From the sequence record PP418986.1: a stretch of 64,000 bases of DNA. The stretch is one strand, 5' to 3'. The translations under genes were made by a program, and so were the position numbers. This DNA comes from Escherichia phage UPWr_E2. Below are positions 1 through 64,000 of the stretch, one piece after another. The notes under the pieces were generated by a model. That model was not told where the DNA came from, did not search any database, and saw only the letters and a list, made by a program, of their open reading frames with translations. The number at the start of each line of letters is the position of its first letter. The first letter of the stretch is position 1.

Positions 1-735
1 AAGATCGACGGCAGTTACAAACCCTTGATTGGTGATTACACTTCTTCCTTTGAGAATCGGATAATAACAATCCTGTGAAACATAACCATGATCGACGAAT
101 ATTGGTGCTTCTACTCGCCATTGGTTGCCCCAATCACCCGGTTGTCTAGCAATCCATCCAGAACCGTTAATGTGTACACGATCGCGGTTAACGTTAACCA
201 TTGCGATATTTTGTGGATTTAGCGAAATCTCACCATTGTTTGTGATATGTACTGCCGCCTGAGTAGCATAGCTATAAAATGCTAGCGAATTATCAGCACC
301 ACCCTTACCAATATACCAGTTACCACTCCCGTCTACGTCACCACGAATATGCAAAGCATTACCAGCAGTTGTTGATAATACAATAGAATCACCCGGACGT
401 TTAATAATCAATCTACCTTCGGATTCAATTTCACCAAAAAATTTAGTCTTAATTGCACCAGTCGCTAAAGTACGTTCAGTGGAAAAATGAACGCCTTTGC
501 TGTCTTCTAACTGAATAATGTTATCGCGCGCATTATTACTATCACCCCAATGATTAAACCGGAAATAATCACGTGATTGCTTACCACCCGCTTCAAACGT
601 CAGCGTACCTTTACTTAAATTAACATCACCGCTAAAGGTAGCAGCAAGAGAATCACGTTCTAATTTTAAAACGTTAGCACCACTAGTACCACCTAAAGTA
701 ACATCACCAGTTCTCAATTCATAACGGAAAGGTCT
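1..735 (-). CDS. 37: long tail fibre distal subunit gp37, C-terminal coding portion (partial; runs off window start; out of frame with the upstream gp37 ORF because of the 349-bp duplication)
   Basis: minus-strand frame open 735->1 with no stop; re-reads the repeat unit then ...RPGDSIVLSTTAGNALHIRGDVDGSGNWYIGKG...; no ATG inside the repeat unit. Confidence 0.5.
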
Positions 736-1084
736 AATCACCCGGACGTTTAATAATCAATCTACCTTCGGATTCAATTTCACCAAAAAATTTAGTCTTA
801 ATTGCACCAGTCGCTAAAGTACGTTCAGTGGAAAAATGAACGCCTTTGCTGTCTTCTAACTGAATAATGTTATCGCGCGCATTATTACTATCACCCCAAT
901 GATTAAACCGGAAATAATCACGTGATTGCTTACCACCCGCTTCAAACGTCAGCGTACCTTTACTTAAATTAACATCACCGCTAAAGGTAGCAGCAAGAGA
1001 ATCACGTTCTAATTTTAAAACGTTAGCACCACTAGTACCACCTAAAGTAACATCACCAGTTCTCAATTCATAACGGAAAGGTCT
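387..1084. repeat. perfect tandem direct duplication, 2 x 349 bp (387-735 and 736-1084)
   Basis: units identical at every position compared; flanking bases differ (386 vs 735; 737 vs 1086). Confidence 0.95.
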
Positions 1085-2833
1085 ATTTGTATTATAGTTT
1101 CCATTTTGATCATCTTCGTTGGTGGAAAGAATATAAAGATTCTCTCCATAAGTACGGAAAATTGTACCAAAATTTCCGGCATACATACGGAATGCATTAG
1201 ATGAGCGAAATTTAACTTCTGTTTTAAAAGTGGTAGTGTTATTAAGGTTAACAGTAGAGTTAAAATTGGTAGGAGCACCGAAGTTAACAGCACCATTAAA
1301 ATCTTGTTGAGCTGTCCATGTGTGGCAACCATCTTCAAGAACAACACGGCGGACTGTGCAAGTTCTATTTCCAGAATTACCGAACACACTAACGACAAAA
1401 TAACGGTAGTTTGTCTGGGATACAGTACCACGCCAAACCTGAACAGTACGTCCTGTGCTAGTGTGCTCGCTAGGACCAACAGAAAACATAATTAAGTTTC
1501 CGTCAATCGTACCCCAATCCATATTAGCTGGCATGTTCTTTATTTTGTTCAAAGGAACGCTAAACATACTACCAGGAACAAAATCAAATGTTTGCCAGTC
1601 TAACTCTGCTAAGTTAGATTTAATACCACCCATACCCAAAGTAATTGGAAGAGAGTAAGATGTATATACTTCGTTCCATGTACCCCAAACACCGCCGGTA
1701 TATGCACGCTCAAAAATACGATCGCGGGTAGTTGCACCTGTTCCGGCAGTAGTAAATTTTTGGAAAATAGCACCACCAGAAGCACGCTGTTTAACTTCCA
1801 GCAAACCAACAATAACGGTTGGTAAACCTTCACCTGTAGGACAGTTAATAACGGCATCAGTGCCTAAAATGTTATATAACCCAGGAGCTTTAAAATCATT
1901 CAGGTCTCCGTCATAGAAAGTCGCCGGTGTGACATTACCGACTTGTTGCCACGGTCCCCATTTAGGCGCAGATGCATCCCATGCAGCAGCAAGACAGCGA
2001 GTATAAACAACACCAAATCTGGTCGTATATCTCTGTGTGCGAGAATAGTTTCCACCTTCATATACTTCTAAAAGTCCTTGAGCTGACAATCCTTCTTCTG
2101 GGAAATTTCTGTCAAAGGTAGCAATGGAATTTGAACCATTTCGCCACAAACCAAGGTGTTCAGCGCCTCCTAGATCATTAAGATCAATCGTTGTTGACAG
2201 TGGACGAGTACCAGATTGAATATTTCGCCACGCACTCCACGGACCGTTTACTCCGTTCCATGTAGCAGTCAAGGAACGAATATAAACATTTCCGTATCTA
2301 GTTGTATATCTCTGAGTACCAGCAAATTGACCGGCCACAAATACTTCTAGAACACCTACAGCATTTTCTTCTGGAAATTTATTTGCTGGTTGAGCGTTGG
2401 TTGAAGTTGTTTTCGACCAAACTCCAAGATATTCTTCAACAGGCCCATACTCATCTAAATTAGCATCAACAGGTAATTCGCCGTTATTTTTTATAAACGT
2501 TGTGCTATTGACATTTATGTCAGATGGAGTTAGCGTGATATCTTTTGACCCATCAAAGGATATACCATTAATTTTTCGTGCTGTTTTTAATTTCGTTGCA
2601 GTTGCAGCGTTACCTGTTAAATTTCCAATTATGTTTCCATTAACAGTTAAAGAACCATCAATTGTTCCTCCATATTTTAAACCTAATTCTATAACACTAC
2701 CTGAGTCATCTTTTGTGAAAATTGTTTTATCTTTTAAGTTTATAGCCAATTCACCTTCGGCTAATACTGAAGCAGCAGGACGTTGACCTGCAGTTTTGCT
2801 TCTTTTAAATTGTATTTGTTTTAAAGTAGCCAT
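734..2833 (-). CDS. 37: long tail fibre distal subunit gp37, N-terminal ORF (699 aa, ends at a TAG formed at the duplication junction)
   Basis: N-terminus [13 protein letters not shown] typical of T-even gp37; directly downstream of gene 36; body differs from my memory of T4 gp37. Confidence 0.85.
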
Positions 2834-2841
2834 AAGTCCTC

Positions 2842-3492
2842 TTAATAATAGCCGAAATCTTGAACAGAATCCTTAATTACGATTTGGTCAAATCGTGGAA
2901 CGTGTGAAGGTTGAGATGCAGGATTCTGTGAAAAAAGGTTTGGCGCAGTTAAATTTCCTGTCATAGTGTCTCCAGAGCGTAATACCCTAGAGTTTGCATT
3001 TGCTGTAACAGTATTTATTGCTCCATCAACATAATCTTTACGAGTAACATCAGATGCTGCGGAAGGAGTAGATGTAACAGTTACAGATGGAGCCGTTACA
3101 GCTTTGGTAAATGTTGTCAAACCTTCTGGCGTAATCGTAATTTGTCCAGTAGTGATTTCACTACCTGCTGGTCTAAAACTAATACCGCCAGAAGAGCCAC
3201 CAACTACAAGAGTATTACCAGTGCCGCCACCAGAACGAATTCGGATGGGGGTTTCATTATTACTTAATTGAAGATAACTATTTACCCCGTAATTAATAGT
3301 AATTGGACCGGTGTAAGTACCACCATTAGCTTTAGAAACGAAATCGTTATCAGCTGCCTGCGGTTTATTATATTCTGAATATATTTTAAATGATTTGTAG
3401 AGTACATCGTCACCGGCTGAATTCAATGGAAAATTTCCTTGATGCCAAATGACAGATCCACCCACAGTTGAACCTACTTTTAAATCAGCCAT
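2842..3492 (-). CDS. 36: long tail fibre distal connector gp36
   Basis: 216 aa; N- and C-terminal thirds match my memory of T4 gp36 (MADLKVGST..., ...[17 protein letters not shown]); synteny. Confidence 0.9.
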
Positions 3493-3554: not shown

Positions 3555-4670
3555 TTAAACTTCTCTAAATTCCTGTCCAAACACTTTGCCAGTTTTAGAA
3601 GAGGCTTGTGTAGGAAGTACCATTATATCTGGAGGTGAAGCCGATTCACAGACATAATTAACGCGAATACCGTTGACGCCAAATTCGGCAGGTTTTGAAA
3701 TGCCGCCATTTCTTGATACTTCAGAAAAACTTAAATTTCTCATGCCGCCTTGACCTGCTTGAGCAGTTCTTTGTGCATATATCGTAAATCCTACTGCATT
3801 TTCAGGAACAACTACATAATCTTCTTTTAATTCCCAAGACCCAGCTTGCCCAGTAAACTCAGCTTGGGTCGAGGAAATATATCCATTTGATGCATCATAA
3901 AAACGAATAGATATATTTGTAGTTCCAAGATCAAGTAAATCAGCATCAGCATATAGTTGTGCTTTAAGATAAAGAACATCACCAGGAATTAAATTGTAGT
4001 CAGAAAGTTTACTTATAGCAGCTGAAGTTGGCAATCGCGCAATTTCATTATTAGTTCCTCCAACCGCAGACATAAATTGCTCAACGCTTTCGTATGTTCT
4101 TTTAGGAAATCCTGTAGCTCCGACGTCTTCTAAACTATCAAATACAACATCTAAAATAGTTTGATAATCATCTGTGCTTTTTCTATTACTTAGTTTAACA
4201 TGCTCTAATGCAATAACTCTTTTAGAAGAAGTATAAAAAGCAGCATATGACACGTCAAATCTTGACAATACTGAATCTGATGGAAAAACTGAAGTTCCTG
4301 CTCCCCTTAACCAAGATACCACTTCAGGAGGAAAATTAACCTTTCCGCTAGTTAATATAGCAACAAGTCTATTGTTTGACAAAGAATTCATGAAACTGAC
4401 AAAAGCGGCAGATGTTGTATCGTTTGAAGCAGAAAAAGCATATGACTTGCTATCAACTAATGCTCCCGTAGAAGGGTCAAAAACTCTTAAATGAAGACCT
4501 GCACTAAATGTTTGATTTCCAACGGGATTATCCTGAAATTTAACATATGGCCCCGCAGTAGAAAGCGGGCAAGAACCCGCTATGCTTATTTTATATCTTA
4601 CTGAATTGCTTTCCGATAAAAATGGCGTTTGGACATATCCTTGTCCAAACTCTGCCATAAATTTTTCCAT
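3555..4670 (-). CDS. 35: long tail fibre hinge connector gp35
   Basis: 371 aa; MEKFMAEFGQGYVQTPFLSESNSVRYKISIAG... matches T4 gp35 from memory. Confidence 0.9.
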   Translation of the reverse strand: MEKFMAEFGQGYVQTPFLSESNSVRYKISIAGSCPLSTAGPYVKFQDNPVGNQTFSAGLHLRVFDPSTGALVDSKSYAFSASNDTTSAAFVSFMNSLSNNRLVAILTSGKVNFPPEVVSWLRGAGTSVFPSDSVLSRFDVSYAAFYTSSKRVIALEHVKLSNRKSTDDYQTILDVVFDSLEDVGATGFPKRTYESVEQFMSAVGGTNNEIARLPTSAAISKLSDYNLIPGDVLYLKAQLYADADLLDLGTTNISIRFYDASNGYISSTQAEFTGQAGSWELKEDYVVVPENAVGFTIYAQRTAQAGQGGMRNLSFSEVSRNGGISKPAEFGVNGIRVNYVCESASPPDIMVLPTQASSKTGKVFGQEFREV

Positions 4671-4678
4671 AATACCTC

Positions 4679-7600
4679 TTATTCAATCCACTCAAATTTA
4701 ACAGTTTTATTCACTGGGTCAGGAATAATGCGAACATTACCAATTCGCAAGAAATCGCGAATAGTAAGATTACCTATTATTCCATTATCAGATGGGATCG
4801 CTCCTATATCTGAAGGTTGAGGAGGGTTACCTCCGTCAAATACCTGAACAAAACTTGACCAAGAGTTTTTGGTTTTCTGCCATGTACGTGTCCAGCGAGT
4901 GGTACGTGCTTCTGGGGTCGTTGGATAAGTAATCCAATCTTGGTAAAGTGAATCAAGTGTGTTACCAAACTGAGTCAATGTACCAGGAGATTTAACTTCT
5001 TCACCACGTTCTAAGTATGGAAGTCCAGTCACTTCATTAGTTTTTTCAACCATTTTAAAATAACCCGGGAACTGGTTATAAGTGGCTGAATCATTAATAT
5101 CGATTGACCAGAATCCTACTGTATCAGATGTTGGCGCACGGGTATATAAATCAGAGGTTTTAGTACCCTGAGAACGAATTCTCGAGTTAACAGTCAAACC
5201 ACCCGAACTTATAGTAGCACCTTTTGCAATGATTAAGCTTTCACCAATCGTTACTTGGCCAGATGCATTATTAATAGCTAAAGGACGCAATCCATTAAAT
5301 CCGCCAGTTTGATCACCCGATGCAGTAAGCATAAAATTCGTTACTGACCCGTCATTGCGAACAATGAAACCATAATTTCCGCTAATAGCACGGAAAGCAT
5401 TTGCGCTTCGAGAAATAATTTCACCAGTTGCAGTGACTGAATTACCAAATGTTGCTACACCATTTGCATTCAATGTTCCTGAAGCATTAACATTTATCGG
5501 TGTTACTGTACCGTTGATATTAAATGTTATATTTCCAGCTTTATTACGCTGAGAATAAAAATGACTAGACGTTTCATCACTAACTTCAAATACGGTAGAA
5601 CGTGTTGTGTCTGATTCCCCACTAAACTGATTTCCCCACACTCTGACTGTCATCGTTTGAGCTGGGTTTGTTCCAGTTTGAGGTCCTTTCTCAAAAATCA
5701 GACGAGTTGCCGTTCCAGTATTAGAAATAGTTAATGTACTATTTGCTGAAACTGATCCACCGAATGTAGCAGTACTAGATGATACAAGAGGGGCACTCAG
5801 ATTCGTTTGTTGGGTTAAGGTTAGTGAACCATTAACTGTTTGTGCAATGTCCCTACGAATGAACTGGAGCGAATCTAGACCATCTAATAAATTACTATCT
5901 ACAGCTTTTGCTTTTAATGGCAAATAATTTGCTAATACGCGATTTAATTCATATGGTGATACTGCATAACCATTTTTCTCATATGATTCTAATGGCTGTG
6001 TTGAACCTACCGTATCATTACCAACAAACGTTAATGAACCAGAAGAAGTTTTAACAAACCCTCTTATCAGAGTAGTTGCTGCCCAAGTTGGTTCACTCTG
6101 CACAATCCATTTTAAATTTTTTGGAGATACAGCAGTATTTGCTGACGTTCCAGTCACAGTTTCAGACTGAGTTGCAACTTTAATAACACCTTCTTGCGAT
6201 TCGGTAGATTTAGTACCTAAAAGCTTTTTAGGAGTTATTAAAACATTATCTAATGTTCCTGCAGCAGCTTCAACTTGTGTAGCTACACGAAGTGTACCAC
6301 GCTGTGTCTCATTTGCTTCAAGAATATTAAGGGTATAATGGTCCCAGAGAGTTCCTGATTCAACTAATCCAGATAGAGCAACAACAGAAGTACGATCAGT
6401 ACTATTAAATCTGGTTTTAATTTTTAATGGTGTAGAGATACGAGTATCGTCGACGCCTGCGTCGAATTCAACCTGTGTAGCAATTTCAGCTATACCACTT
6501 AAACTTTCAGTTGCTCTACGGTCATTTAAAGTTTTAGGAGTGACTGCACGAGTATAGTCAGTTCCTGTATTAACTTCACTTTGCGTAGCAATTTCAATTA
6601 AACCAATTCTTCCATCAGTTGATGTCTTTTTATGTAACGTTTCTGGCGTTACAACCGCATTTGCCCATCCTTCTTGGCTTTGTCCAGCAATTACTTCACT
6701 TTCAACTGCTAAAATTACTGCGCCTTGTTGCGTTGGAGTAGCTTTATACTGATCCAAAGCTTTAGGTGAAACAACTAAATTATTAGTGTTTTTATTATAA
6801 ACATTCGTACCATTTAATTCACGACTAGAAGCTGGAGTAGCTCCTGCGGTAGATACAAAAGTTACAATACCCGATAATGTTTCAGAACCTTGACGAGCTT
6901 GAAGCTTTTTAGGAGTGATGATTGTAGTATCATCAGTACCTGTATTAGTTTCCTGCTGCGTAGCAATTTCAGCGACACCTCTGCGAGTTTCTGTAGCAGT
7001 TCTTTCATTCAGCTTTTTAGGAGTGATGATAAGGTCATCTGCAAAAGAGAATGTGGTGTTCTGATTCACTTGAGCAGTAGTTGCTATTCTTGCAATACCT
7101 CTGCGAGTTTCTGTAGCAGTACGATTAGCTAACGTTTCTGGAGTAATTGCCAATTCTTTTTGCGGAGAATTTTCTAAATCAGCATTTGCTTGAGCTTGTG
7201 TAGCTAAAGCAATTACGCCTAATCTTGCTCTAGTAGAATTATTTAAAGAATCGACTCTTTCAACTGTTGGAACGTTTTGCTGTACAACCCAGTATTTTCC
7301 ATCAGAATCTTCTATATAAGCAAGTTGCAAAACTGGTACATAATTAGTTTCACCATTAAAAACTAATTCTTGAACTGTTACCCATTCAGCTTCAGGCGGA
7401 TATTCTGAACGTTTTGGGAATTGCAGCAATTGAACTGAAGAAGCAATTTTATCTTCACCGGCAGCTTTGATTTTAACTGTTTGTCCTTTTCTCATGTAAT
7501 TCATGGAAATTTTAACAGTATCACCAACAGAAATATCAGTCGGAAGCTGAAGTTCAATTGTTTGGGTTGTTCCATTATTCGCGCCAAATACCATGACTTC

Positions 7601-8548
7601 TTCATTTGGACGAATATTTGAATTAGTTGTTATAATGCGTAAACGTGCTTTACTATCCCCGTCAAACAATCTCCACAATTTCTCATTATCGTCAAACATC
7701 AAGAAACCGTCAATCGATGTACGGCCTTCAATGGAATGAGTTCCAACTTCTTGTACTGAAGTCGTTTCATCGTATGTAGTAACAATTGTATGATAAAGTG
7801 GATTCAGTTTATCTAAATCAACGAAATTAATAATATCGCCATGATTAGCAAATCTCGGAAGTTTAACATTAATTGGTGCAGCAGAAGTAAATCTACGTAC
7901 GATAAAATCATTAGATTGTGCTTGATATGCAGTCGATGGAGTAACAATCGCAGCTTCTCTGCTATAATCAGCAATATACATTTGCCACAAACGATTATTA
8001 AAAATGAATACCATCTGTGACTTTGGATGAGTCATTAAAACTGAACGTACCTGTTCACCTCTAAAATTGACAATACTCTGATTTGAAGAATTTATTTTAA
8101 CCTGATTTATGCCAGGTTTTCCACCGATATCTTGAATTATTACGGTTTCTCCATCAAGCGGAGAAGGTGGTAAAGTAAACTCAATGTCATTGCCAACTGA
8201 TGTATCTACTGAAATTGCTTCTCCGGATTTTAATTGATATGGTCCAGATGATACGGTTGTATATACGGCATCAGTACGTAATGCTTTCCAACGAATTCTA
8301 TTAAAATTTCCAGCAGGTTTTGGAATATTATCCGTTGCTGCCCAAAAACGATTATTATAAATGATTACAAAATCTTTTAAATATCCACGAGTTGGGTCAT
8401 ATTGCTGAACTGTGTTTTCTTGAATTAAGTAATCAACGTTAACACCGTCAGTTCCTACGGTACGATCAGCTAAAGCTACGTTGATTATTTTATCGCCACC
8501 TGCGTCCAGACCATCTTCTGCTCTGAACTTTCTTTTAATCTCGGCCAT
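4679..8548 (-). CDS. 34: long tail fibre proximal subunit gp34
   Basis: 1289 aa, same length as T4 gp34; synteny upstream of 35-36-37. Confidence 0.92.
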   Translation of the reverse strand: MAEIKRKFRAEDGLDAGGDKIINVALADRTVGTDGVNVDYLIQENTVQQYDPTRGYLKDFVIIYNNRFWAATDNIPKPAGNFNRIRWKALRTDAVYTTVSSGPYQLKSGEAISVDTSVGNDIEFTLPPSPLDGETVIIQDIGGKPGINQVKINSSNQSIVNFRGEQVRSVLMTHPKSQMVFIFNNRLWQMYIADYSREAAIVTPSTAYQAQSNDFIVRRFTSAAPINVKLPRFANHGDIINFVDLDKLNPLYHTIVTTYDETTSVQEVGTHSIEGRTSIDGFLMFDDNEKLWRLFDGDSKARLRIITTNSNIRPNEEVMVFGANNGTTQTIELQLPTDISVGDTVKISMNYMRKGQTVKIKAAGEDKIASSVQLLQFPKRSEYPPEAEWVTVQELVFNGETNYVPVLQLAYIEDSDGKYWVVQQNVPTVERVDSLNNSTRARLGVIALATQAQANADLENSPQKELAITPETLANRTATETRRGIARIATTAQVNQNTTFSFADDLIITPKKLNERTATETRRGVAEIATQQETNTGTDDTTIITPKKLQARQGSETLSGIVTFVSTAGATPASSRELNGTNVYNKNTNNLVVSPKALDQYKATPTQQGAVILAVESEVIAGQSQEGWANAVVTPETLHKKTSTDGRIGLIEIATQSEVNTGTDYTRAVTPKTLNDRRATESLSGIAEIATQVEFDAGVDDTRISTPLKIKTRFNSTDRTSVVALSGLVESGTLWDHYTLNILEANETQRGTLRVATQVEAAAGTLDNVLITPKKLLGTKSTESQEGVIKVATQSETVTGTSANTAVSPKNLKWIVQSEPTWAATTLIRGFVKTSSGSLTFVGNDTVGSTQPLESYEKNGYAVSPYELNRVLANYLPLKAKAVDSNLLDGLDSLQFIRRDIAQTVNGSLTLTQQTNLSAPLVSSSTATFGGSVSANSTLTISNTGTATRLIFEKGPQTGTNPAQTMTVRVWGNQFSGESDTTRSTVFEVSDETSSHFYSQRNKAGNITFNINGTVTPINVNASGTLNANGVATFGNSVTATGEIISRSANAFRAISGNYGFIVRNDGSVTNFMLTASGDQTGGFNGLRPLAINNASGQVTIGESLIIAKGATISSGGLTVNSRIRSQGTKTSDLYTRAPTSDTVGFWSIDINDSATYNQFPGYFKMVEKTNEVTGLPYLERGEEVKSPGTLTQFGNTLDSLYQDWITYPTTPEARTTRWTRTWQKTKNSWSSFVQVFDGGNPPQPSDIGAIPSDNGIIGNLTIRDFLRIGNVRIIPDPVNKTVKFEWIE

Positions 8549-22167: not shown

Positions 22168-22221
22168 GTTTACAAGTCCCTCGTGTTGTGTTATAGTAGT
22201 CTTACTGACATAACATGAGGA
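22168..22221 (+). promoter_or_regulatory. early promoter/leader cassette, copy 1 of an identical 54-bp repeat
   Basis: gtttac -35, tatagt -10, SD gagga; identical to 38098-38151. Confidence 0.55.
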
Positions 22222-29236: not shown

Positions 29237-29560
29237 ATGAAAACGATTAATCTGAACGCTGCAGTTAAAACTAAATGCTTCAATGGTAAATATGATGAAA
29301 CTATGTGGTTCTTAATGGCAGTTGAAGGTGATATTATTGAAGTAGAAACAACAGAAGGTATGGGAACAGATTTCACCTTTACAATTCAAGTTCATAATTT
29401 CTTTACTGGTTGGATTTATGAATTGAATACAGTAATCGTTGGAAAAATTGAACAAAATGAATTAGGTGAATGGTATTATGTTACAGCTCGCCAACGTGCC
29501 GAACGCTTAATTGAGAAGATGAAAAAGTTGGTAAACTTGACATGCAGCATTGGAAAGTAG
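29237..29560 (+). CDS. hypothetical protein (107 aa)
   Basis: SD aaggag upstream. Confidence 0.55.
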   Translation: MKTINLNAAVKTKCFNGKYDETMWFLMAVEGDIIEVETTEGMGTDFTFTIQVHNFFTGWIYELNTVIVGKIEQNELGEWYYVTARQRAERLIEKMKKLVNLTCSIGK

Positions 29561-36040: not shown

Positions 36041-38098
36041 ATGGAACTTATTACAGAATTATTTGACGGCGCTTCGGCGCCGGTTGTTAACTTAAATCCT
36101 AAGCATAAAATACCACAAATTTTTGCTATTCAAGCCGGCGAAGAAAGCGTGCTTCCTGGATTTAGATTTTGTACATACACCTCTGGTGGTGATACGAATA
36201 AAAACGTTAAGCCAGGCGATAAAATGATGCATATCGTAATGATAGGTGTTAATGAGAAACTATCATTAGTTAAGCTTAAAAACTTGGGTGGAAATCCAAT
36301 TGGTGTCATTAATGCCGTTTTTGATACTGCTCTTCAAACAATGAAACAGTATAAAATCGACGCATGCCTATTCCGCGTACTAAAAAGTAAAACAAATGGC
36401 GCTGCTCGTCAAATGCAAGTTATTGCTGACCGTTTAGTACGTACTAAAGGAGCAGGTCGATATGTTCTTTTAAAGGAAATCTGGGACTATGATAAAAAGT
36501 ATGCATATATTATGGTTTACCGTAAAAATGCCAATTTAGAAGACATTCCAGGTGTACCTCCTATTTCAACCGAGTTATTCACAAAAGTTGAATCGAAGGT
36601 CGGTGATGTTTATGTAGATGTTAAAACAGGTAATGCTGTTCCTAAAGCTGTCGCTGTTGCTGCTTCTATTGCTTTAGAAAATGATAAGCGCACGGATCAA
36701 GCGGTTATTCAAAAAACTAAAATTAGTCGTCGATTAGCAGCACAAGCTCAATATTCTACTGTTGATGCTTCACTTCAGGGTGATAGCTTCGCTGCTAAGA
36801 AATATCAAGAGTTTGAATCTAAAGTTCCGGTGTATAAAGCAGAAGGACCAATGAACTCTGGCGTTATTCAAATTGGTTCAAACTTCAGCAAAGGAGCTAT
36901 AGGCGGTATGAGAAGCGCTTCTCGTTTTAAATCTAGTGATTATGAACTCGAAAGCTTCCGAAATCATATTGCATTAGCCCATGCACGTTTACGTGATCCA
37001 TCTATCAAGTTACAGAGCGATATAACATATCAAGGTTCTCAAGAATATTTAAAGAATAAAGAATTCTTTGATTATAAGACTGATAAAATTTTAAGCGATC
37101 TTGCTGATATTAATATTTCTAATAGCTTTGATGTTATTAAGAAAATTATCAATGATTTGGTTAAAGGTTCTAAAGCTACGCCAGATGAAAAGACAGCTAT
37201 TATTCAATTTGTCATGAATGGCATTTATAAATTGATTAATGAATCTGCTGCTCAGGCATATGAATACGCAAGCACTGAAGTAACTCCAAAAGGATTAACT
37301 CAAGCTGAATCTGATGTAATTGAAGATTATTGTGCAGATTCATATGTTGAAATGAACTCGTTCCTTTTGGGTAAACCAGATTCTACCCGTGAAGAATATA
37401 TGGAACGAGCTATTAAACATATTGAGACGCTTGATTCTGCATTCGCTAAAGGTTCAGTTCTTCCTCCAGGAACTACACTTTACCGTGGACAAGAAGTTAC
37501 CTTTAAAACTTTGCGTCATAACATTGAAAATAAAATGTTCTATTTCAAGAACTTCGTATCCACATCGCTTAAACCAAATATCTTCGGTGAGCATGGTAAA
37601 AACTATATGGCTCTAGATGATTCCGGCGCAGTATTTTCTGGTGAAGGAGAAGGTTCCGTTGATGCAGAAGATTTGATGCATATGGGTAGTCATTCTACAT
37701 ATGCTAATGAAGATGCTGAAACTAGCGTGGGTATGGTAATTAAAGGAGCTGAGCGAATCAAAGTTATCGTTCCGGGTCATTTATCAGGATTTCCGTCAGA
37801 AGCTGAAGTTATTCTACCACGTGGAATTTTACTGAAGATTAATAAAGTAAGTACTTACTTTATGAAAGAAACTGCTTATAACAAGTATCTAATCGAAGGT
37901 ACAATCGTTCCTCCTTCTGAACAATTAGAAGAATCAGTATATGATGGCGACCATCTAATGGAAACTGGTGAAGTTCGTCCAATGGCTGGATTTAATCAAT
38001 TCCTTGTAGAAGAATCAAAAGAAGAGGAAAGCGAAGTTTCTCAAATCTTAGCTTCTTTGGTTAACATCAACGGAATGTCTAAAAAGTTCAAAATGTAG
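36041..38098 (+). CDS. Alt-like mono-ADP-ribosyltransferase, paralog B
   Basis: 685 aa; TLYRGQE, FVSTSL, EAEVILPRG motifs; N-terminal ~230 aa similar to paralog A, centre divergent. Confidence 0.8.
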   Translation: MELITELFDGASAPVVNLNPKHKIPQIFAIQAGEESVLPGFRFCTYTSGGDTNKNVKPGDKMMHIVMIGVNEKLSLVKLKNLGGNPIGVINAVFDTALQTMKQYKIDACLFRVLKSKTNGAARQMQVIADRLVRTKGAGRYVLLKEIWDYDKKYAYIMVYRKNANLEDIPGVPPISTELFTKVESKVGDVYVDVKTGNAVPKAVAVAASIALENDKRTDQAVIQKTKISRRLAAQAQYSTVDASLQGDSFAAKKYQEFESKVPVYKAEGPMNSGVIQIGSNFSKGAIGGMRSASRFKSSDYELESFRNHIALAHARLRDPSIKLQSDITYQGSQEYLKNKEFFDYKTDKILSDLADINISNSFDVIKKIINDLVKGSKATPDEKTAIIQFVMNGIYKLINESAAQAYEYASTEVTPKGLTQAESDVIEDYCADSYVEMNSFLLGKPDSTREEYMERAIKHIETLDSAFAKGSVLPPGTTLYRGQEVTFKTLRHNIENKMFYFKNFVSTSLKPNIFGEHGKNYMALDDSGAVFSGEGEGSVDAEDLMHMGSHSTYANEDAETSVGMVIKGAERIKVIVPGHLSGFPSEAEVILPRGILLKINKVSTYFMKETAYNKYLIEGTIVPPSEQLEESVYDGDHLMETGEVRPMAGFNQFLVEESKEEESEVSQILASLVNINGMSKKFKM

Positions 38099-38151
38099 TT
38101 TACAAGTCCCTCGTGTTGTGTTATAGTAGTCTTACTGACATAACATGAGGA
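38098..38151 (+). promoter_or_regulatory. early promoter/leader cassette, copy 2 of the identical 54-bp repeat
   Basis: identical to 22168-22221. Confidence 0.55.
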
Positions 38152-49246: not shown

Positions 49247-49255
49247 GGATAACTT

Positions 49256-50673
49256 ATGGCTTTTACAGTTGATATAACTCCTAAAACACCGACAGGGGTT
49301 ATTGATGAAACTAAGCAGTTTACTGCTACACCCAGTGGTGAAACTGGAGGCGGAACTATTACATATGCTTGGACTGTAGATGATGCTCCACAAGATGGAG
49401 CTGAAGCAACTTTTGATTATGTATTAAAAGGACCTGCTGGACAAAAGACTATTAAAGTAGTTGCAACAAATACAGTTCCAGATACTGATGCTGAAACAGC
49501 AGAAGCTACTACAACTATCACAGTTCAAAATAAGACACAAACGACCACCTTAGCTGTAACTCCTAATAGCCCTGACGCTGGAGTAATTGGAACAGCTGTT
49601 CAATTTACTGCTGCCTTAGATTCGCAGCCACCAGGCGCATCGGCTACGTATCAATGGTACGTTGACGGTTCTCCTGCGGGCGAAGCAACTTCTGCTACAT
49701 TCAATTACACTCCTGACACAAGCGGAGTTAAAAAATCAAGTGTGTAGCTCAAGTAACCGCGACAGATTATGATACAAAGGAAGTTACTTCGAATGAAGTA
49801 TCACTGACTGTTAATAAAAAGGAGCAGACAACTACTTTGGCAGTAACTCCTGATAGTCCTCCAGCGGGAGTAATCGGAACCCCAGTTCAATTTACTGCTG
49901 CCTTAGCTTCTCAACCTGATGGAGCGTCTGCTACGTATCAGTGGTATGTAGATGATTCACAAGTTGGTGGAGAAACTAACTCTACATTTAGCTATACTCC
50001 AACTACAAGTGGAGTAAAAAGAATTAAATGCGTAGCCCAAGTAACTGCTGAAAATTACAATGAAAAGGAAGTTACTTCTAATGAAGTATCATTGACAGTT
50101 AATAAGAAGACAATGAATCCACAGGTTACATTGACTCCTCCTTCTATTAATGTTCAGCAAGATGCTTCGGCTACATTTACGGCTAATGTTACGGGTGCTC
50201 CAGAAGAAGCACAAATTACTTACTCATGGAAGAAAGATTCTTCTCCTGTAGAAGGGTCAACTAACGTATATACTGTCGATACCTCATCTGTTGGAAGTCA
50301 AACTATTGAAGTTACTGCTGTCGTTACTGCAACTGATTACGATAGCAAAACTATTACAGCAGAAGGTCAAGTTCAGGTAACTGATAAAGTTGCTCCAGAA
50401 CCAGAAGGTGAACTACCTTATGTTCATCCTCTTCCACATCGTACTTCAGCTTATATCTGGTGCGGTTGGTGGGTTATGGATGAAATCCAAAAAATGACCG
50501 AAGAAGGTAAAGATTGGAAAACTGACGACCCAGATAGTAAATATTACCTACATCGTTACACTCTTCAGAAGATGATGAAAGACTATCCAGAAGTTGATGT
50601 TCAAGAATCGCGTAATGGATACATCATTCATAAAACTGCTTTAGAAACTGGTATCATCTATACCTATCCATAA
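49256..50673 (+). CDS. hoc: Hoc outer capsid decoration protein, interrupted by a -1 frameshift in an A6 run (49730-49735); four Ig-like domains
   Basis: ORF 49256-49747 and ORF 49837-50673 together read as Hoc if one A is added to the run; C-terminal ...YVHPLPHRTSAYIWCGWWVMDEIQK... matches T4 Hoc. Confidence 0.8.

Positions 50674-61660: not shown

Positions 61661-64000
<2,340 letters not shown>

Follow-up and report, generated by a model that had tools for sequence, protein, structure and literature searches.

A perfect 349-bp tandem repeat in the long-tail-fibre gene 37 of Escherichia phage UPWr_E2: probably an untrimmed assembly overlap

Introduction

Untrimmed terminal overlaps are a known feature of phage genome assemblies. 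The published length of the overlap artefact left by the assembler SPAdes is 127 bp, and for one and the same phage the largest contig varies in length by up to about 177 bp from assembly to assembly, a variation that has been attributed to artificial overlaps (PMC5923482). Likewise, the Phage Annotation Guide warns that contigs may exceed 100% of the genome length and that redundancies may end up at internal positions (PMC8785237). Here, we describe a tandem repeat of 349 bp in the distal long-tail-fibre gene of Escherichia phage UPWr_E2, within a stretch of 64,000 nucleotides of sequence record PP418986.1 that was analysed as a whole (hereafter the window). Like the untrimmed terminal overlaps of circularly permuted phage contigs, among them the SPAdes artefact (PMC5923482, PMC8785237), this repeat is perfect, occurs exactly twice and is found in one record only; it is also without signs of selection or decay, and it interrupts a gene that all relatives have intact. 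It differs from such overlaps in its length, 349 bp not being a k-mer value, and in its position, as an internal tandem and not a sequence at two ends.

A second group of comparable cases is formed by duplications in gene 37 of phage T4 which, according to papers citing the original study, extend the host range to Yersinia pseudotuberculosis (Tetart, Repoila, Monod & Krisch 1996, J Mol Biol 258:726, pmid 8637004). The repeat in the window resembles these in being tandem, in lying within a T-even gene 37 and in belonging to a lineage that infects Y. pseudotuberculosis. In contrast to them, it is out of frame and located in the shaft (aa 584-699), in a phage of which the adhesin is gp38. The T4 duplications are reportedly in frame, affect the C-terminal receptor-recognition domain and yield viable phage.

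Interrupted genes can also be read through by recoding, and translational bypassing was discovered in T4-type phages, in gene 60. In both the gene 60 bypass and the +1 frameshift of the prfB type, the last in-frame codon is followed directly by a stop, and a matching codon is found further downstream, as in the window. The slippery codon, the correctly spaced Shine-Dalgarno-like stimulator, the take-off stem-loop and the conservation that mark those systems are absent from the window, and the gap to be crossed would measure 349 nt, as against 50 nt in gene 60.

For the gene itself, Yersinia phage PYps55T provides the reference: its gp37 (QNJ50865.1) is the distal subunit of a long tail fibre of the T2/T6 type, in which gp38 is the adhesin. 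In PYps55T, gene 37 (995 aa) is followed by the gene for the gp38 adhesin (Pfam GP38, 1.6e-65) and then by the holin gene t. The operon order gp34-35-36-37 is common to both phages, but only the gene in the window is interrupted by a repeat and carries five unique substitutions.

Organization of the repeat and its effect on gene 37

Direct comparison of positions 387-735 and 736-1084 shows 349 bp arranged head to tail with 0 mismatches (349/349), and Tandem Repeats Finder returns a period of 349, a copy number of 2.0, 100% matches and a score of 1398. There are no other long tandem repeats in the window. A perfect repeat of this size cannot have arisen by chance. The period-349 identity spans 387..1085, one base beyond the unit, so that the junction has a microhomology of 1 nt. 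The copy-copy junction 735|736 reads ...GGAAAGGTCT|AATCACCCGG..., and both copies are base-for-base identical to the single copy of PYps55T. Two variants of a duplication were considered and set aside: an in-frame event of 348 or 351 bp masked by a homopolymer error is contradicted by this identity of both copies to the PYps55T copy, and a microhomology-mediated event finds only the 1 nt shared at the junction, which is uninformative.

The repeat unit covers aa 584-699 of the 995 residues of gp37, in the shaft region and upstream of the gp37_trimer and Peptidase_S74 domains. Its length is out of frame: 349 equals 3x116+1, so that translation arrives in the second copy out of phase. The ATG-initiated minus-strand open reading frame (2833..734) ends in ...IIKRPGD* at the TAG 736-734, while the distal part, 735..1, has no stop in the +1 frame over the 245 codons that remain before the edge of the window. 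The correct continuation, RPFRYEL...RPGDSIVLSTTAG..., is open in this +1 frame from 756 to the window edge. Gene 37 runs off the window at its start, and its last 167 codons as well as gene 38 lie beyond it. The coordinates of these and other features are collected in Table 1.

A preliminary description of the window, made from the letters and a list of open reading frames, had already reported two identical head-to-tail copies, a frame shift with a stop that ends the reading frame at 699 aa, and a distal coding region that stays open in another frame; comparison of the copies, Tandem Repeats Finder and translation of the reading frames bear out each of these points. It had also stated that the repeat has no methionine at which translation could restart. 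This holds for the 116-codon unit, which encodes no Met, but it passes over the alternative start codons of the distal frame, namely GTG 741 and TTG 717, 411 and 354, none of which has a ribosome-binding site.

Intact gp37 contains a Gp34_trimer-like domain (aa 522-587), a weak match to gp37_trimer (703-757) and a Peptidase_S74 chaperone domain (883-941). The out-of-frame duplication costs the protein its C-terminal 296 residues, and the 699-aa product retains the Gp34_trimer-like domain only, without the gp37_trimer match and Peptidase_S74. Gene 37 amber mutants of T4 give non-infective particles, and loss of the C-terminus of gp37 leaves the phage without a fibre tip. A phage with only the duplicated sequence should therefore be non-infective, since the trimerization match, the chaperone domain and the gp38-bearing tip would all be gone. 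As the break hits an essential virion protein, most phages of a propagating stock cannot have the duplicated form.

Table 1. Position of the repeat, of the long-tail-fibre genes and of the split hoc-like gene in the window
Feature	Position	Strand	Remarks
Distal gene 37	1..735	-	second repeat copy (codons 584-699), then codons 700-828; +1 frame; DNA 100% identical to PYps55T
Second-read copy	387..735	-	identical to 736-1084; the gene 37 frame reaches it with a +1 shift; its frame matches only that of distal gene 37
Junction stop TAG	734..736	-	arises across the copy-copy junction (GAT|TAG ACC); ends the reading frame at 699 aa
Truncated gene 37 reading frame	734..2833	-	699 aa; Gp34_trimer-like domain (aa 522-587) kept
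First-read copy	736..1084	-	codons 584-699 plus 1 nt, correct frame
gp36	2842-3492	-	long-tail-fibre operon, collinear with PYps55T
gp35	3555-4670	-	long-tail-fibre operon, collinear with PYps55T
gp34	4679-8548	-	long-tail-fibre operon, collinear with PYps55T
Split hoc reading frames	49253-49744 and 49732-50670	+	one-base deletion at 49729

Comparison with related phages

The window phage belongs to the genus Tequatrovirus and is T4-like, with a fibre of the T2/T6 type. Without one copy of the repeat, the window follows the PYps55T record (MT515756.1) collinearly from position 63626 back to position 1 and is 99.9% identical to it. When the repeat is collapsed, 828 uninterrupted gp37 codons are obtained, as the preliminary description had expected of a single copy, and 823 of the 828 residues (99.4%) equal those of PYps55T gp37. 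The five differences are A142T, S233G, S249L, R482S and R503C. The distal 736 nt of gene 37 are 100% identical to PYps55T and show no decay downstream of the break. On the basis of its position in the operon and this near-identity to an annotated gp37, the interrupted gene is identified as that of the distal long-tail-fibre subunit gp37 of the T2/T6 type.

The duplication has not been found in any other sequence that was searched. With single-copy gp37 as the query, all 60 of the best related records are single-copy for this segment of gene 37, and in 58 of them the match is uninterrupted, the exceptions being MZ234040.1 and PP418987.1. A query of 3000 nt is covered for at least 80% by 124 records; among the matches listed, it maps in two pieces onto about 2650 nt (3000-349). 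A junction-spanning probe was never matched in one piece by phage records, and the 40-mer across the junction gave 0 matches in IMG/VR, 0 in metagenome contigs and 0 in genome contigs. Neither the exact 699-aa product nor the exact gp35 is on record. The exact gp34 occurs on seven contigs, and the four places shown carry an intact gp37 of 994, 995 or 1045 aa. A literature search on gp37 and tandem duplication yielded nothing specific, and the paper on PYps55T makes no mention of such a repeat.

The two exceptions both have a repeat of their own in gene 37. GenBank record MZ234040.1 (vB_EcoM-G3G7) contains a perfect 127-bp tandem repeat (4747-5002 of the retrieved segment L002, about 66463-66718 of the record). 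The repeat divides gene 37, which is annotated as two CDS; when the repeat is collapsed, 995 codons are restored. The siblings G3G6 and G3F8, among others, are without this repeat, and the G3G7 record is exactly 127 bp longer than that of G3G6. G3G7 is a wild-type, plaque-forming phage with a plaquing host range of 49%, the best of its set, and was assembled with SPAdes 3.13/3.14 from MiSeq 600-cycle reads (PMC8614997). Its repeat, which has the published artefact length, very likely reflects an assembly artefact that went uncorrected into a public record. Since G3G7 is viable, SPAdes-assembled and has a repeat of 127 bp, gene 37 has very likely been split in this lineage by an untrimmed overlap that came to lie inside the sequence when it was rotated to a shared starting point. 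UPWr_E4 (PP418987.1) has a perfect repeat of 153 bp (51 codons) in gene 37 (4153-4459 of the retrieved segment L003). This repeat is in frame and annotated as part of a single fibre of 1045 aa, and it could be either a genuine duplication that lengthens the fibre or another overlap artefact.

Other differences and features of the window

The window and PYps55T differ at 58 positions. The majority of these (42 of 58) are clustered at 62095-63920, in the genes for the large and small terminase subunits, and 39 of the 42 are synonymous. The best match over this interval reaches only about 98.9% (vB_EcoM_Shinka). Judged by its sequence, the interval has the marks of an ordinary recombination patch derived from a more distant Tequatrovirus.

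Another 14 differences are isolated substitutions, 12 transitions and 2 transversions. Two are intergenic, and all 12 coding ones are nonsynonymous, distributed over gp37 (five), gp35 (one), rnh (one), pseT (two), gp25 (one) and gp18, the tail sheath (two). They are located at 1327, 1390, 2088, 2137 and 2410 (gp37), 4421 (gp35), 11812, 24417, 24781, 45544, 61130 and 61429. The five gp37 alleles are unique in a panel of six sequences. This pattern looks like recent strong selection, as in a laboratory-adapted or "trained" phage, or else like errors.

Furthermore, two single-base deletions in runs of A were observed, both peculiar to the window among the relatives listed. The one at 49729 (A6 instead of A7) splits a hoc-like head decoration gene that is intact in PYps55T (472 aa); the additional base is present in all 30 relatives listed for a hoc probe. 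Either the sequencing erred in a homopolymer, or the non-essential hoc is genuinely knocked out. The other, at 29521, is located towards the 3' end of a short hypothetical gene, a homologue of PYps55T_042. A 161-nt probe at this position matches 93 records at 99% identity or more, and the 15 listed are all at 99.4%, with one gap and otherwise identical. Taken as a whole, the differences fit a recently laboratory-adapted derivative, an imperfectly polished assembly, or both.

Finally, the window contains a perfect direct repeat of 54 bp, GTTTACAAGTCCCTCGTGTTGTGTTATAGTAGTCTTACTGACATAACATGAGGA, at 22168-22221 and 38098-38151, each copy closely preceding a different ATG start. The repeat resembles a promoter of the T4 early type (GTTTAC ... 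TATAGT) that has been duplicated together with a putative leader and ribosome-binding site.

Origin of the repeat

The 349-bp repeat is probably an untrimmed overlap between contig ends that became internal upon circularization or rotation, and we infer that its cause lies in the assembly and not in the DNA itself. Genomes of T4-type phages are circularly permuted. Assembly of such a genome would give a contig with two overlapping ends, and in the case of the window phage these ends would have fallen by chance inside gene 37. Heterogeneity of gene 37 in the phage stock would account for a contig ending there. If the overlap was left in place when the contig was closed, rotated or joined, 349 bases would come to stand head to tail at an internal position. 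The actual phage would then carry the sequence once and make an intact gp37, about 995 aa long, with the gp38 adhesin at its tip.

What would be expected of such an artefact is indeed seen: the copies are 100% identical and exactly two in number, a single copy restores the frame of the relatives, and the junction is absent from independent sequences. On the other hand, 349 bp is not a common k-mer value of assemblers, which makes the fingerprint weaker than the 127 bp of G3G7, and, because the repeat is internal rather than terminal, this reading also requires that the contig was closed or rotated in a further step. The deletions in the A-runs at 29521 and 49729 hint at imperfect finishing of the sequence, or alternatively are real mutations. 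The signs of recent strong selection in gene 37, in which all five differences are nonsynonymous and unique, speak against an artefact.

These same five unique changes, with 0 synonymous ones beside them, suggest recent pressure on the gene and are also the point at which a real duplication gains in credibility. The duplication would then be the product of a recent illegitimate recombination, carried by a defective sub-population that is complemented by the wild type at high multiplicity and caught in the consensus. Tandem duplications are known to form in T4-type phages, those in gene 37 of T4 that extend the host range to Y. pseudotuberculosis are documented in the papers citing Tetart 1996, and the in-frame perfect 153-bp duplication of UPWr_E4 is possibly genuine. 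An artefact and a very recent event would both leave copies that are perfectly identical. The T4 precedent is not followed in two respects: no lengthened, complete gp37 results, translation stopping at the junction, and the unit lies outside the C-terminal receptor-recognition segment. Being out of frame, a duplication that removes the 296 C-terminal residues of an essential protein could not be selected and could not reach a majority. From the established biology of T4 recombination, a tandem repeat of 349 bp would segregate rapidly to a single copy. The microhomology at the junction is 1 nt only, and the duplication is found nowhere else among phage records, IMG/VR, metagenome contigs and genome contigs. 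A real duplication would be lethal alone and prone to loss by homologous recombination; its only way to persist would be in a minority that is complemented, and we regard this origin as unlikely.

That a viable phage packages DNA with this duplication and expresses gene 37 by recoding at GAU-UAG, or as two overlapping polypeptides that co-assemble into a fibre, is highly improbable. Equally hard to credit is that a real duplication is tolerated by means of a +1 shift or a gene-60-like bypass at GAU-UAG, or by restart at GTG 741 to give a two-piece fibre. The required change of frame is indeed +1, the last in-frame codon is followed at once by the stop, a second GAU stands exactly one unit (349 nt) further downstream, GTG 741 is in the distal frame 5 nt upstream of the stop, and bypassing was first found in this group of phages. 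These coincidences of sequence are nevertheless automatic for any tandem duplication. Re-pairing from GAU to AUU is poor, so that there is no slippery codon; a Shine-Dalgarno sequence is absent upstream of GTG 741 (upstream sequence ATTGATTATTAAACGTCCGG); the RNA at the junction folds no better than shuffled controls (z = +0.89); and the arrangement is conserved in no relative. We know of no precedent for a hop of 349 nt. For want of a slippery codon, a Shine-Dalgarno sequence and an RNA structure, frameshifting, bypass and restart were all rejected as candidates.

The preliminary description had placed an assembly or end-joining artefact first and a true duplication, carried by a defective or mixed population, second, and had considered recoding less likely still. 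The relatives, the junction searches and the case of G3G7 lead to the same order, and nothing at the junction favours recoding.

Implications

The biology behind an untrimmed overlap is ordinary and matters little; for data quality, the finding matters somewhat. The sequence as given probably annotates the main host-range fibre wrongly as truncated and makes the genome look 349 bp longer than it is. Automated analyses of host range, of receptor-binding proteins or of completeness would misread the window phage. The record of G3G7 (MZ234040.1) has a similar defect in gene 37, and both records merit a curation flag. Gene 37 may be a recurrent break point of contigs in T-even phages, possibly as a result of population heterogeneity at this locus, and curators should therefore screen for perfect tandem repeats.
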